DNA from: Promethearchaeota archaeon Loki_b31
GTDB lineage: Archaea; Asgardarchaeota; Lokiarchaeia; Sigyniarchaeales; SOKP01
Assembly (NCBI GenBank): GCA_005222975.1
Contig: NJBI01000041.1
Coordinates: 1-31,202 of the forward strand
Reading direction: 5' to 3'
DNA: 31,202 nucleotides
Shown piece after piece: positions 8,156 through 12,485 of the stretch (position 1 is the first letter of the stretch; each line of letters opens with the position of its first letter). A program made the position numbers and the translations under genes. Below the pieces are notes generated by a model, which ran no database searches, was not told the origin of the DNA, and saw only the letters and a list, made by a program, of their open reading frames with translations.

Positions 8156-9205
8156 ATGAAAATTGCACGATATTATAACAATAACGATGTTAGACTTGAA
8201 GAGATACCAAAACCAATAATTGGTTCAGGAGAATTATTAATAAAAGTCGTAAAGTCAGGTATCTGCGGTTCGGATGTTCTAGAATACTATAGATTTGCCA
8301 AAATGAAAAAATTAGGCGTAGATAATCTAATTCTTGGGCATGAAATCGCAGGCGATATTGTTGAGATAGGAAAAGATGTAAGACGCCTCAAAGTCGGAGA
8401 TCGTGTTTTTGTTTCTCACCATGTTCCTTGTTTTGATTGTTATTATTGTCATCAAGGGCATCATACTGCGTGTGGTCTACTTCATAGTACCAATTTCGAT
8501 CCAGGCGGTTTTTCTGAATATGTTAGAATTCCTAAAATAAATATCGAGAAAAAAGGAGTATTTGTTTTAGATAGGTCGGTGTCTTATGAAGAGGGAGTAT
8601 TTATTGAGCCTTTAGGCTGTGTGTGTAGGGCACAAAGATTAGTTAACGTTGGAAAAGGCTTAACGGTTTTAATACTCGGTAGTGGAGTTTCTGGAATTTT
8701 GCATATTCAACTAGCAAAATTGAGAGGTGTTGCAAAAGTATTTGCAACGGACATCAATGAATATAGGTTAAAAATGGCGAAGAAGTTTGGGGCTGATGAG
8801 GCTTTTTATGCCAGTGAGGATATCTCTTCAAAACTTATGGAATTGAATGATCATCGATTAGCAGATATCGTTATCGTATGTACTGGCGCTTTATCTGCAG
8901 CAAATCAGGCTTTAAAATGTGCTGCACCTGGTGGTAAAATATTATTTTTTGCAGTTCCGCCCCCTGGTATTAATTTGGAAGTCCCTATAAACGAATATTG
9001 GAGAAATGAGATAACAATAACGACATCATACGGAGCAGCACCTGAAGATCTTCAGGAGTCTTATATATGGATATTATCTAAGAAAATAAAAGTCTTGGAA
9101 TTAATAACTCATAGATTCCCTCTAAGTCAAGCTGGAGACGCTTTCAAAGTTGTTTGTGAAGCAAAAGAATCCTTAAAAGTTGTTTTAGAGCCCAATAAAG
9201 AATAA
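8156..9205 (+). CDS. Zinc-dependent (MDR) dehydrogenase, sorbitol/iditol dehydrogenase-like
   Basis: GICGSD, GHE, structural Zn site CFDCYYC...C, EPLGC and GSGVSG NAD-binding motif. Confidence 0.92.
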   Translation: MKIARYYNNNDVRLEEIPKPIIGSGELLIKVVKSGICGSDVLEYYRFAKMKKLGVDNLILGHEIAGDIVEIGKDVRRLKVGDRVFVSHHVPCFDCYYCHQGHHTACGLLHSTNFDPGGFSEYVRIPKINIEKKGVFVLDRSVSYEEGVFIEPLGCVCRAQRLVNVGKGLTVLILGSGVSGILHIQLAKLRGVAKVFATDINEYRLKMAKKFGADEAFYASEDISSKLMELNDHRLADIVIVCTGALSAANQALKCAAPGGKILFFAVPPPGINLEVPINEYWRNEITITTSYGAAPEDLQESYIWILSKKIKVLELITHRFPLSQAGDAFKVVCEAKESLKVVLEPNKE

Positions 9206-9217
9206 AGAAAGAGTTAT

Positions 9218-10180
9218 TTATAGATTTTTTCTTATGCTTCTTTCAATATGCTTTCTTATTATCCAAGATTCCCAAAAAGCGTAAATTTTTAGCATTGGTC
9301 CTTTCATTTTTCTTTTAGGAAAAAATATATCTAATTTAAGCAACGCTTCTGTTTTCTCGCCAATTGTAAGTTTATGATCAAGTGATTTTAGCGGAGAATT
9401 AACTTTATCTTGATTCTCTTCTATTTTTTTTCTCATATAATTAAACGGTGTTCTATCGGGATTTTTAACTACATATGAATGACTTGAAGTTAATTGAATT
9501 GCTTTCTTAAGAAAAAGTTCTTCAGCAAGATTAATATCCTTGATTGTCTGCTCAATAGAGCAATCCCTAAAACCATACCAAGGGCCAAAACCATTTACTC
9601 CTGGTTGAGTTTGGTCAAATCCCATACAACTTATATGTAAAATTTTTTCGGAAGGAAAAAAAAATCCAATGTGACCTAAGGAGTGCCCTGGAAAAGAGAT
9701 GGTTTGCAGTTCGAAATTATCGAATCTTAATGTGTCACCGGGTTTAAATGAAATAACTTCATTACATTTTTTATAACCCATTGACTTAACAAAGCTCATT
9801 CCAGTTTCTAAGTCAAGTTCCTTTAAAAATCCAAAGTTATTTAAAAAATTATAACTATCTAACAAATTTGTATGTTCTGGAACAGGAACATATATATTTA
9901 CTCCTTTTTCGCTCCAAACATGCACATGAGCTGCGTGATCTAAATGTGTATGACTGCATATGTAATCCTTAATGGGCTTAAACGAATTGTATATGACATT
10001 TGCAAACTGTGGTTCAATATTAAGATCAATAATAATAGCGTTCCTATTTACTCCCCTTTCTGGTAGTTTAATTAAACCATCGCACCTTGTAAAGACGGCT
10101 GATGCTTTGATTTGGTGAACTAATAATAAATTTTCAGTAACCTTAGAAATTTGAAGATTATCAATATTGGGTAAAGACAT
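9218..10180 (-). CDS. MBL-fold metallo-hydrolase
   Basis: SHTHLDH, PGHSLGH and SSH motifs. Confidence 0.88.
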   Translation of the reverse strand: MSLPNIDNLQISKVTENLLLVHQIKASAVFTRCDGLIKLPERGVNRNAIIIDLNIEPQFANVIYNSFKPIKDYICSHTHLDHAAHVHVWSEKGVNIYVPVPEHTNLLDSYNFLNNFGFLKELDLETGMSFVKSMGYKKCNEVISFKPGDTLRFDNFELQTISFPGHSLGHIGFFFPSEKILHISCMGFDQTQPGVNGFGPWYGFRDCSIEQTIKDINLAEELFLKKAIQLTSSHSYVVKNPDRTPFNYMRKKIEENQDKVNSPLKSLDHKLTIGEKTEALLKLDIFFPKRKMKGPMLKIYAFWESWIIRKHIERSIRKNL

Positions 10181-10291
10181 TAGTGTGAGTGTAATCTCTA
10201 TTGTAATTATAAAGGAAAATTATGAAATATTTAAGAACTTAATCTTAACACAAAATATTCTTAAAATAAATATATATAAAAAAAAATATAA

Positions 10292-10345
10292 TTATAATCC
10301 TACAGGACCATTACTATAGATTTCATATGCTTCATCTACTGAAGC
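10292..10345 (-). pseudogene. Displaced duplicate of the lsrF 3' end (17 codons + stop)
   Basis: Encodes [17 protein letters not shown] versus [17 protein letters not shown] at 11671-11724. Hand count: 15/17 aa and 40/54 nt identical. Confidence 0.9.
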
Positions 10346-10370
10346 TTTTCGTAATTTCCAATTTAATAAG

Positions 10371-11567
10371 TTAATTGGCTTCTTTTTCGTATTCTTCAAA
10401 CTTCTTTCCTTTAAGTAGTTTATTCCAATAATGTGGTTCCGGTCTCTTTATTTCCCATTTATCACAGGTTTCCCTTACAATCTTTGGATAGGTGTGAAAG
10501 ATTTCGGAAATATTTCTAATCGGTATTTTCCAAACTAATTTAGATAATATTTCCTTGCTAATTGAATCTTCAAAAAGGATTCTTGATGGTACTCGAAAAT
10601 ATTTTCGTTTTCTAGGTAAACTATCCAGGTAATTATCCAACATCTCATTAAAGAGTTTTGCTCCTAAACTTAAATAATAATTTCCAACACCATCAGGAAT
10701 AATTTGATGTTTAAACTCAAATTTTCTTTTTATCTCTTCTAGAATAGGCTTACTCCCTATATGAAACTGATTTTTTCCTTCTTTTCCATCTCCATCAAAA
10801 AAACCAAGTAGAAATGCTAAATCTAACTCACGACTTTTTAATATAGGAAATGTTGTAAGTTTAAGTCCGCTTGGGACATGACCTAATTTTTTCAAATCCT
10901 TTACTATTTTTGAACACTTAAATCTTATACGGATGTAAGTCTTCAACCCGGATTCTTTCATTATATTCCTTGAAGATTTGTAATCTGGATTTAAACCTAA
11001 ATCTTTTATAAATTTATCAATTAATAATTCATCTTTATTGCTTAAATCAAGTGTAACAGCATCATTCTTCCCTAAATACACTTCTGCCCATAAAAAACCA
11101 AGCCAATATGCTTTGTTTTTTGTATCAATATTCTCAAAATAATCCATTTTAATATTTGGATGAAAATTCAATATTTTTTTCCCATTTTTTCTTGAAATTG
11201 GGAGATCATTATTTTTTATTCGATATTTTTTAATTAATGTTGTTATACTGACCGCTTTATTCCCAAGTATAGATATCAATTTTTCTTCCCATTCTTTTAA
11301 TTCATCTTTAGCGATTTTGTAATTAAAGTTTCCTTCTCGTATATTGCGTTTTATTCTTTTTATTCGATTCTTATATCGGCAAAGAAGAAAACTTAAATTA
11401 GTATCTGGTAAAGATTTGTTATAATACATTCTCATTTCATGACCATCTATAACTAAATGAGATGGTATAATATTTATTAATACATTTCTTAAATCTTCTA
11501 TAAATTCTTTAGTTGAATATTGATTATTATAGGATTTGATATCTAACTTTTTAGGATTTTGATTCAT
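10371..11567 (-). CDS. Free-standing two-motif LAGLIDADG homing-endonuclease-like protein with C-terminal HTH-like domain
   Basis: KAYWLGFLWAEVYLG and AFLLGFFDGDG motifs; C-terminal SKEILSKLVWKIPIRNISEIF...CDKWEIKRP. No intein splicing motifs seen. Confidence 0.82.
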   Translation of the reverse strand: MNQNPKKLDIKSYNNQYSTKEFIEDLRNVLINIIPSHLVIDGHEMRMYYNKSLPDTNLSFLLCRYKNRIKRIKRNIREGNFNYKIAKDELKEWEEKLISILGNKAVSITTLIKKYRIKNNDLPISRKNGKKILNFHPNIKMDYFENIDTKNKAYWLGFLWAEVYLGKNDAVTLDLSNKDELLIDKFIKDLGLNPDYKSSRNIMKESGLKTYIRIRFKCSKIVKDLKKLGHVPSGLKLTTFPILKSRELDLAFLLGFFDGDGKEGKNQFHIGSKPILEEIKRKFEFKHQIIPDGVGNYYLSLGAKLFNEMLDNYLDSLPRKRKYFRVPSRILFEDSISKEILSKLVWKIPIRNISEIFHTYPKIVRETCDKWEIKRPEPHYWNKLLKGKKFEEYEKEAN

Positions 11568-11646
11568 GTATTAAATTTCATTACGCACTAAGGTATTTTA
11601 ACAAATAGACTCTTCTTAATTTCTAATTCAAATAAAATGTAATTGA

Positions 11647-11668
11647 TAATAAAAAAAAAATAAAAAAT
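11647..11668 (-). terminator. T-rich archaeal-type terminator after lsrF
   Basis: TTTTTTATTTTTTTTTT tract on the minus strand just after the spliced lsrF stop codon. Confidence 0.45.
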
Positions 11669-11670
11669 AT

Positions 11671-12485
11671 TTAAAGGCCAACTGGACCTTTTTGGTATAT
11701 TTCATAAGCTTCGTCAACTGAAGCATTTTCATGTACAATAGCTCTAACTGCTTTAATCATACCGATGGGCTTGTCAGATTGGAAGATATTTCTTCCCATA
11801 TGTGCGCTTATAATTATGAATAATAATTATAATCTACGCCAACAGCTCCAGCAGTAATGGCATTCTTTGCCATTTGTAAAGCTTCCCTCTCCGGTGTTTT
11901 TTTTCCTCCCGCAATAACTACAGGTACAGGACAAATACTTGTTACATTTTCAAAGTTCTCACAATAGTATGTTTTTACAAATGTAGCACCTAACTCCGCG
12001 GCCATTCTACTAGCCATTCCTAAGTAACGGTGATCTCTAACCATTTCCCTACCAACTGCGGTGACCGCTAAAGTAGGAATTCCATATTCTTGCCCCCAAT
12101 TTACTAATTTCGATAAATTCATTAAGCTTTGCTTTTCAAACGCTCCACCGACAAAAATAGAGCAAGTTATTGCTGAAACATTTAATCTTATGGCATCTTC
12201 AATAGTTACATTAATTTCTTCATTTGAAAGGTCTTTTAGCATGCTAGCTCCAGCCGATACTCTTAATACTATCGGAATATCAAAATCAGGCGAAACACAA
12301 CTTCTTAACATCCCTCGAGTAAGCATTAAAGCATCAGCATATTGAAATAACGGATTTAAATCTCCAAAACATTTTAATTGACCAGGTATATTACCAAAAT
12401 ATCCATGATCGACGGCAAGCATTACACAACGCCCAGATTTAGGTTTGATAATCCTTGCTAATCGATTTTGCATTCCCCAATCCAT
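11671..12485 (-). CDS. lsrF: LsrF-type class I aldolase/thiolase, intron-containing: join(complement 11834..12485, 11671..11801), 260 aa
   Basis: [34 protein letters not shown] and VIAGGKK in exon 1. Exon 2 gives (D)[42 protein letters not shown]. 652 + 131 = 783 nt = 261 codons. Confidence 0.9.
11802..11833 (-). other. Predicted 32-nt BHB (tRNA-type) intron in a protein-coding gene
   Basis: UG GCGU [AG^A] UUAUAAUUAU-UAUUC-AUAAUUAUAA GCGC [AC^A] UA. Removal gives GGC GTA GAT ATG GGA AGA (GVDMGR). Confidence 0.88.

Follow-up and report, generated by a model that had tools for sequence, protein, structure and literature searches.

Why is the lsrF gene of a Lokiarchaeon interrupted by 32 nucleotides (nt), and why does it seem to end twice? 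The question is raised by contig NJBI01000041.1 of Promethearchaeota archaeon Loki_b31 (assembly GCA_005222975.1, 3.5 Mb in 99 contigs), of which the whole stretch analysed here, positions 1 to 31,202 (31,202 nt, 31% G+C), is called the window. There, lsrF exon 1 is followed by a 32-nt intron, a 42-codon second exon with its stop codon (exon 2'), a free-standing LAGLIDADG endonuclease gene and a displaced tail of 17 lsrF codons, in this 5' to 3' order and all on the minus strand. A sequence-only reading of the window had described this layout, and each element was found where that reading had placed it. Because the same layout recurs in other genomes, we reject a chance arrangement. Our analysis makes it probable that a homing-endonuclease cassette, composed of the intron, a foreign exon 2' with its stop, a spacer and the LAGLIDADG gene, replaced the 3' end of lsrF. 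The block sits precisely between the codons of GVD|MGRN and has displaced the native exon 2 downstream, where it is decaying with 17 clear codons left. Below, G000 is the genome under study, other G labels are genomes, C labels contigs, L labels loci or metagenome contigs, and X labels runs.

The intron in lsrF

Exon 1 spans positions 11834–12485, with its ATG at 12485 and the G of GTAG at 11834 as its last base. It matches Pfam DeoC (E = 8e-14) and shows 99% amino acid (aa) identity with the intron-less orthologue of G017; an intact lsrF orthologue scores 390 bits against NCBIfam NF006081 (LsrF thiolase equivalog), for which the cut-off is 297. The DhnA/LsrF-type aldolase open reading frame (ORF) runs from 12485 to 11814, with the frame broken after GAVGVD, and a second ORF of 42 codons (11799–11671) resumes lsrF with MGRNIFQSD. 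Intron-less orthologues read through GAVGVD|MGRNIFQ without interruption; the insert in G000 is exactly 32 nt long, shifts the frame and contains stops.

This insert (11802–11833, minus strand) is a bulge-helix-bulge (BHB) mini-intron, an assignment that draws on its fold, on covariation and on an RNA contig. Strand H1 of the central helix, GCGT, lies in the exon (11839–11836) and is followed by the first bulge AG|A (11835–11833), an inner hairpin (11832–11808, loop 11822–11818), strand H2, GCGC (11807–11804), and the second bulge AC|A (11803–11801). Two 3-nt bulges are thus placed on opposite strands, with a 4-bp central helix between them and flanking helices, as a BHB motif demands. Across alleles the bulges read AGA and ACA/AAA/AUA, and the inner helix has 9–10 bp. 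In an alignment of 15 distinct alleles, pairing was found in 92.9% of the cells of the fold, as compared with 27–45% when the partner columns were slid, and in 98.3% of those of the 4-bp H1/H2 helix. Compensatory double changes affect eight of the 14 pairs, and 0 of 500 shuffles matched the observed covariation values. One base pair of the central helix links an intron base to the third, synonymous position of a Gly codon, and it occurs as C-G, U-A or A-U. RNAalifold independently returned the same fold, plus an outer exon-exon helix CUGU/AUGG. The fold is supported by this covariation, the z-score of the minimum free energy fold of the 101-nt region (only -1.2) being uninformative by itself. 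Cutting after the second bulge base yields GTA G|AT ATG or G|AC ATG, which restores V-D-M(-G-R-N) in 15/15 alleles.

Removal of the intron from lsrF RNA is shown, indirectly, by a metatranscriptome contig (847 nt, depth 31, ~96% identical) that maps to 12437–11832 and 11799–11559 and skips exactly 32 nt; given two bases of redundancy, its joint 11799|11832 corresponds to removal of 11802–11833. A contig from a DNA-type run retains the intron. RNA runs X19 and X20 cover small parts of lsrF and leave the intron unspanned, and run X16 is probably DNA. For splicing, G000 encodes two EndA paralogues (PF01974; C13 and C79) and one RtcB (PF01139; C84). The paralogues, of ~200 aa each, are separate (C13:36116–36340 and C79:5005–5253), and such a two-EndA set would fit the heteromeric, broad-specificity type of splicing endonuclease.

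A frameshifting insert with stops might also be read as the mark of a pseudogene, broken by the 32 nt and trailed by a decayed local duplication of its tail, or as a stretch crossed by ribosomal bypassing. In two genomes the gene is missing from the NCBI annotation, and the bypass insert of T4 gene 60 is likewise linked to an endonuclease, MobA (bioRxiv 10.1101/2022.08.31.505936). We find this hardly credible: the exon 2' ORF is intact and conserved in all alleles, from four genera, the BHB fold is kept by compensatory changes, and the 32 nt are missing from the RNA contig. Bypassing in particular was rejected on this contig and on inspection of the sequence, which revealed no matched take-off and landing codons.

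The intron comes and goes among close relatives. Within the genus, 38 of the 42 species genomes have an lsrF orthologue; 37 copies were retrieved, one of them cut at a contig end, leaving 36 usable. The spacing from the DWG to the MGRN codons is exactly 651 nt in 31 of these, or in 33 intron-less same-genus orthologues by another count, whereas the other five (G000, G050, G019, G022 and G016) have an extra 30–32 nt at the same junction. The lsrF gene of G016 has an additional second insert. Throughout the class, an intron occupies the identical site in 12/161 genomes, belonging to four genera of one family, and a reversed control pattern gave 0 matches among the 161. A pattern scan of metagenomes returned 120 stretches, eight of which are real lsrF introns; the remaining ones were discarded as chance matches to the 19-base pattern.

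Two other sites in lsrF hold mini-introns: site A, after VDHG, with 30 nt in L078, L079, L080 and L211, and site B, at AGG|KK, with 30 or 36 nt in L041 and L080. At both sites the central helix is 4 bp long and the bulges are of 3 nt, and the same cutting rule gives junctions that restore the frame. In G082, the lsrF gene has three introns.

The two lsrF gene ends

Exon 2' (11671–11801, minus strand) comprises 42 codons and TAA, its first two bases completing the Asp codon. The displaced tail, or remnant (10292–10345, minus strand), holds the last 17 codons of lsrF and a stop, and starts 25 nt after the stop of the endonuclease gene. We obtained the same counts as the sequence-only reading for the differences between the remnant and the tail of exon 2' (14 of 54 nt, 2 aa), and the intron, which it had placed less than 80 nt upstream of the duplicated segment, lies 74 nt away. 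The direct repeat measures 81 nt at 74% identity (10269–10349 and 11648–11728), including the stop and the first ~23 nt beyond it.

That the two tails stem from different lineages, and not from a local duplication, had also been proposed, and comparison with relatives upholds it. As exon 2 is only 129 nt long, foreign and native sequences were called by nearest-neighbour distances and divergence profiles, instead of a tree incongruence test. The remnant differs at 1/54 nt from the tails of G014, G015 and G043 and at 2/54 from that of G017, and it is followed by the native downstream region common to G017 and G050. Conversely, the difference between G000 and G017 rises from 24/651 (3.7%) in exon 1 to 27/129 (21%) in exon 2', which differs at 21/129 nt or more from intron-less alleles and has its nearest relatives among other intron-bearing ones. 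The pattern is repeated in G091 (exon 1 31/639 and remnant 4/116 from G092; exon 2' at least 25/129 from intron-less alleles) and in the metagenome contig L151 (exon 1 74/634 from G001 and G023; remnant 7/129 from G001; exon 2' at least 24/129 from intron-less alleles). Because exon 2' is 14/54 from the remnant while the remnant is 1–2/54 from its nearest intron-less relatives, exon 2' is foreign and the remnant is the native lsrF tail. A local duplication that decayed was ruled out, since the remnant matches the native tails of relatives and exon 2' does not. The first 23 nt of exon 2' were identical in the four alleles first compared; its first 14 nt are identical in 15/15 aligned alleles, an identity by selection, these 14 nt having been the search pattern.

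The foreign sequence extends slightly upstream of the intron. Divergence between G000 and G017 jumps ~20 nt before it, and in every lineage the jump falls 0–80 nt upstream of the intron site; the raised divergence in the last ~20–30 nt of exon 1 marks the left edge of co-conversion. L151, which has an intron and exon 2' of the G016 type, offers a sharper case: 60 differences from G016 fall within its first 543 nt and a single one within the 237 nt that follow, the introns being identical and exon 2' differing at 1/129, and therefore the intron-containing tract moved between lineages as DNA.

The point of insertion can be read from eight remnants, in as many genomes or contigs, which start at exon 2 codons -2 (L151), 1 (G081), ~4 (G091), ≤12 (L231), ≤14 (L208), ≤17 (L232), ~21 (G019) and ~21–26 (G000), and none of which holds more than 5 nt of exon 1 sequence; several cassettes are without a remnant. 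Since the longest remnants begin exactly at the intron site, the inserted block consists of the intron, exon 2', the spacer and the endonuclease gene. The sequence-only reading had likewise taken the mobile unit to be the intron-bearing 3' part of lsrF plus the endonuclease, and the remnant starts fix where this block begins. The displaced native exon 2 has been eroded from the side facing the endonuclease. In G000, a scrambled stretch (10346–10370) leads from the stop of the endonuclease gene to the clear remnant; its matches to native exon 2, from AATTG to ACGAAAA, are broken by indels, and it probably holds degenerate codons ~21–25 of the old exon 2. A breakpoint hotspot at nt 60–66 of exon 2, considered for the G000 and G019 remnants and for L211/L212, was dropped, as the starts at ≤12, ≤14 and ≤17 make a continuum.

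G022 has a chimeric exon 2, of which the first ~100 nt match exon 2' of G019, and the last ~25 nt and the trailer match the G019 remnant. Such a chimera could have arisen by loss of the endonuclease through recombination between the two repeats, or from a conversion tract ending inside exon 2'. The spacer of G000 (11568–11670, minus strand) separates the exon 2' stop from the endonuclease start by 103 nt, the first ~25 of which resemble the native T-rich lsrF trailer, and it is included in the spliced RNA contig that reaches 11559.

The endonuclease and its association with the intron

The endonuclease gene (10371–11567, minus strand) is intact and encodes 398 aa plus a stop. Its Pfam match to PF14528 (LAGLIDADG_3) reaches 16 bits (E = 0.015), under the cut-off of 22.5, and an NCBIfam scan gave a spurious weak match only. 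We found 160 homologues, many of them with PF14528 and some named as homing endonucleases by their source; since homologues at 33–44% identity carry PF14528, the low score reflects divergence and not a different fold. Motif 1 reads WLGFLWAE(162) and motif 2 LGFFDGD(260)G, with E or D at position 162, and D or E at position 260, in 54/54 homologues. The AlphaFold2 model (mean predicted local distance difference test score 88.7) has extra N-terminal and C-terminal helical domains, and its top matches in the PDB by Foldseek were I-AniI, I-SceI, I-DmoI and I-Tsp061I, at probability 1.0. The ratio of non-synonymous to synonymous substitution rates (dN/dS) against cassette homologues is 0.17–0.27, and an intact ORF was found in each of the contexts studied. 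By predicted fold and motifs, the product is a bona fide LAGLIDADG endonuclease. An atypical motif 1 (WAEVYLG) had earlier been given as a ground for doubting its activity; with the acidic residue kept throughout and the predicted fold matching I-AniI, I-SceI and I-DmoI, this ground falls away.

A 417-nt contig from metatranscriptomic run X17 (depth 38, ~93% identical) maps to the endonuclease gene at 10882–11261, and the spliced lsrF contig, ending at 11559, extends just past its start codon. Both hint at expression of the endonuclease, perhaps by read-through, although DNA carry-over is a possible source.

Defined at ≥50% identity, the endonuclease clade was present in 6/161 genomes of the class, all six among the 12 intron carriers. 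The gene lies next to an intron-split lsrF in 13 of 15 contexts, convergently in two of the 13. In one of the other two (G108/L208), it is detached from lsrF, with a 29-codon lsrF tail kept downstream; the other, L212, is weighed below. Intron and endonuclease thus occur together, as the sequence-only reading had supposed, and homologues settled beside unrelated genes, a pattern that would have spoken against it, were not the case. At L208 (3501–7974; the same record as G108:C32), the clade member is of 613 aa, and an AAA_15 ATPase gene and a gene for 295 aa stand between it and the lsrF tail remnant; the intron-bearing lsrF of G108 is on a separate contig.

The intron is also found alone. Intron-only alleles are present in G050, G022, G016, G095 and G097 and in several metagenome contigs, and in G050 and G022, those compared, a cassette-type exon 2' adjoins the intron. 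The arrangement typical of collaborative homing, an endonuclease gene beside an ORF-less intron, is therefore found here together with at least five intron-only genomes. L211 and L212 are 100% identical over 1.56 kb, a stretch that starts at nt 61 of exon 2', takes in the spacer and the endonuclease gene and runs 260 nt past the latter. Their exon 1 sequences differ by 31%, which indicates that the stretch was recently passed between distant hosts.

Contig C18 of G000 bears another cassette built in the same way, without an intron (44390–47124; L005/L213). Its radical S-adenosylmethionine (SAM) gene (45922–47124, minus strand) has last ~40 codons that are foreign, a LAGLIDADG paralogue (44626–45945) lies on the opposite strand, and the displaced tail (44390–44515) is nearly identical to the native tail of G017. 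The paralogue is absent from the corresponding loci of 13 relatives. A foreign 3' end, an endonuclease ORF and a native 3' end matching relatives were thus found in lsrF and again in C18. About seven further endonuclease paralogues of G000, at 25–38% identity (C34, C5, C96, C32 and C38; L002–L004, L006–L008), include several inside long open frames of 501–1353 aa. No duplicated gene ends were found beside the paralogues on C34, C5, C96 (two), C32 and C38; only C18 has them.

Homing, its rivals and related systems

To our knowledge, BHB introns cannot reverse-splice by themselves, and for this reason how they move has remained unclear. In the lsrF cassette, the tRNA-splicing endonuclease would excise the mini-intron and the RtcB ligase would join exon 1 to exon 2', so that full LsrF protein would be made. 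On the DNA, the LAGLIDADG enzyme would cut intron-less, cassette-less lsrF at or near the intron insertion site, the GTAGAY|ATGGG junction, and the break would be repaired from a cassette-bearing allele. If the right end paired with exon 2', the intron and some flank would be copied, giving an intron-only allele; with pairing further downstream, at the remnant or in the gene after it, the copy would include the endonuclease gene. Carrier alleles would be immune because the intron splits the presumed recognition site. A cut at this site is indirectly favoured by the coincidence of the cassette insertion point with the intron site. Indirect signs of site-specific cleavage are the strict specificity for the locus, the patchy occurrence, the co-conversion tracts and the identity of the cassette in divergent hosts. 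Such a mechanism would unite the logic of collaborative homing with a gene-end replacement of the mitochondrial kind. On whether the intron is the shield that protects carrier alleles, we are evenly divided. A broader proposal, that free-standing LAGLIDADG enzymes drive DNA-level homing of BHB mini-introns into Asgard protein genes, with the intron as the immunity element of a three-part module (intron, substitute exon, endonuclease) and intron-only alleles as homing footprints, seems to us neither likely nor unlikely.

Several observations count against homing centred on the intron. The evidence of splicing is one assembled contig from one run, contigs are blind to any unspliced fraction, and the joined form might also occur in DNA. 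The endonuclease's own Pfam match lies below the family cut-off, and the target site is deduced from the junctions alone. The introns at sites A and B have no endonuclease nearby, so that BHB mini-introns exist independently of one; the C18 cassette has no intron, so that a foreign tail alone can suffice. In L151 (9722–10374), the space from exon 2' to a full-length remnant of the native exon 2 is taken up by a pair of genes for a MazE/AbrB antitoxin and a PIN toxin, in place of the endonuclease. Finally, an endonuclease identical to that of L211 adjoins an intron-less lsrF in L212, a contig that could be a transcript or a chimeric assembly; should it be DNA, the intron would not be a strict requirement. 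Together, L212 and C18 weaken the claims on the cut site and immunity.

These cases would suit the main rival account, which we judge rather unlikely yet deserving of attention, in which the intron is a passenger: a cassette like the mobile ORFs (mORFs) of fungal mitochondria would cut in the 3' part of lsrF, the diverged exon 2' would give protection, and the donor's intron would be co-converted by proximity. The radical-SAM cassette with its foreign tail and no intron, the endonuclease of L212, beside an allele that lacks the intron and has its recombination breakpoint at exon 2 nt 60, the MazE/PIN pair in the cargo position of L151, the mini-introns at two other lsrF sites and the start of the G000 and G019 remnants near codon 21 are all in its favour. 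However, the codons at which remnants start range continuously from 1 to ~24 and never lie beyond the intron site, which places the insertion point there and not downstream, and 6/6 endonuclease-bearing genomes carry the intron. Moreover, the full-length remnants of G081 and G091 keep an intact codon 20–25 region beside a resident endonuclease, so that this region is an unlikely target.

It is also conceivable, although we think it improbable, that the cassette is a non-homing relic, spread and lost by ordinary recombination and gene transfer among Lokiarchaeota, with an enzyme that is inactive or repurposed. In the genomes that offer enough flank, alleles with the intron only are more numerous than those with the endonuclease, the tract common to L151 and G016 moved between lineages that have no endonuclease, and many cassettes have lost the remnant. 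A relic would not be expected to keep its ORF intact in every context, with both catalytic acidic residues and a dN/dS of 0.17–0.27, nor to show strict locus specificity across four genera, and two very different hosts share an identical stretch of 1.56 kb, endonuclease gene included.

In architecture, the known systems closest to the cassette are the fungal mitochondrial mORFs that bring a substitute gene end, known from atp6 of Allomyces macrogynus and from atp6, atp9, cox2 and nad3 of Glomus sp. (PMC3630166). These share the order of gene body, foreign C-terminal part, endonuclease ORF (mostly LAGLIDADG) and displaced native C-terminal part, as well as a native copy that matches close relatives when the inserted copy does not; the hybrid gene is expressed, and in Glomus cox2 a group I intron directly precedes the inserted C-terminal part (PMC3630166, Table 2). 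Unlike lsrF, a metabolic gene on an archaeal chromosome, they reside in mitochondrial genomes, their ORF is fused in frame and not free-standing behind a stop codon, and their intron is a ribozyme and not a 32-nt protein-spliced BHB intron; cleavage by the lsrF cassette is predicted from sequence.

In logic, the closest match is collaborative homing by free-standing F-CphI and the ORF-less group I intron of psbA in cyanophage S-PM2 (PMC6083498; discussed in PMC2790892). There, too, the endonuclease gene lies beside and not inside an ORF-less intron, and the two occur together or apart; the enzyme is directed at the place where the intron inserts in intron-less alleles, with immunity conferred by the intron, as is only proposed for lsrF, where the cut site is deduced and not measured. 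F-CphI is an Endo VII-like enzyme of a phage and acts with a group I intron, whereas lsrF has a LAGLIDADG enzyme and a BHB intron in a cellular host, and only the lsrF cassette has a duplicated, replaced exon between intron and endonuclease. T4 gene 60 provides a further parallel, in that a short non-coding insert, of 50 nt, travels with the neighbouring free-standing MobA gene as one mobile cassette (bioRxiv 10.1101/2022.08.31.505936); that insert is skipped by ribosomes, whereas the one in lsrF is removed from RNA.

As for the intron itself, archaeal protein-gene introns in the searchable literature are essentially confined to one gene, cbf5, and the crenarchaeal cbf5 pre-mRNA intron is the closest published relative of the one in lsrF (PMC2738675). 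Both are BHB introns in an archaeal protein gene, served by the tRNA-splicing machinery and gained or lost among relatives. The lsrF intron differs in its host (Lokiarchaeota), its gene and its length (30–32 nt), and in being linked to a mobile endonuclease cassette and flanked by co-conversion tracts, which points to mobility at the DNA level. The BHB introns of rRNA that encode I-DmoI and I-Tsp061I likewise combine an archaeal host, the BHB type and a two-domain LAGLIDADG enzyme, with the ORF inside the rRNA intron; in lsrF, it is outside the mini-intron of a protein gene, behind the substitute exon. A 2026 preprint on Asgard tRNA introns makes no mention of mRNA introns or homing endonucleases.

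New here is that a protein-spliced mini-intron is combined, in a cellular Asgard chromosome, with a substitute exon and a free-standing LAGLIDADG gene. The locus gives transcript-level evidence for removal of a Lokiarchaeal mRNA mini-intron, and its DNA signatures (co-conversion tracts, foreign exon, displaced native exon) indicate that the intron travels between lineages with flanking DNA. It also offers a candidate agent of that movement, an intact, predicted homing endonuclease specific to the locus. The cassette suggests how introns of the tRNA type spread into archaeal protein genes, and would extend gene-end replacement, as in fungal mitochondria, and collaborative homing, as in phages, to a cellular archaeal chromosome. 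If the broader proposal of homing driven by LAGLIDADG enzymes is true, it would be a first mechanism by which coding genes of Asgard archaea, the prokaryotes most closely related to eukaryotes, gain protein-spliced introns.

Downstream of the remnant, the window continues with a gene of the metallo-beta-lactamase fold (9218–10180, minus strand) and a zinc alcohol-dehydrogenase gene (8156–9205, plus strand).

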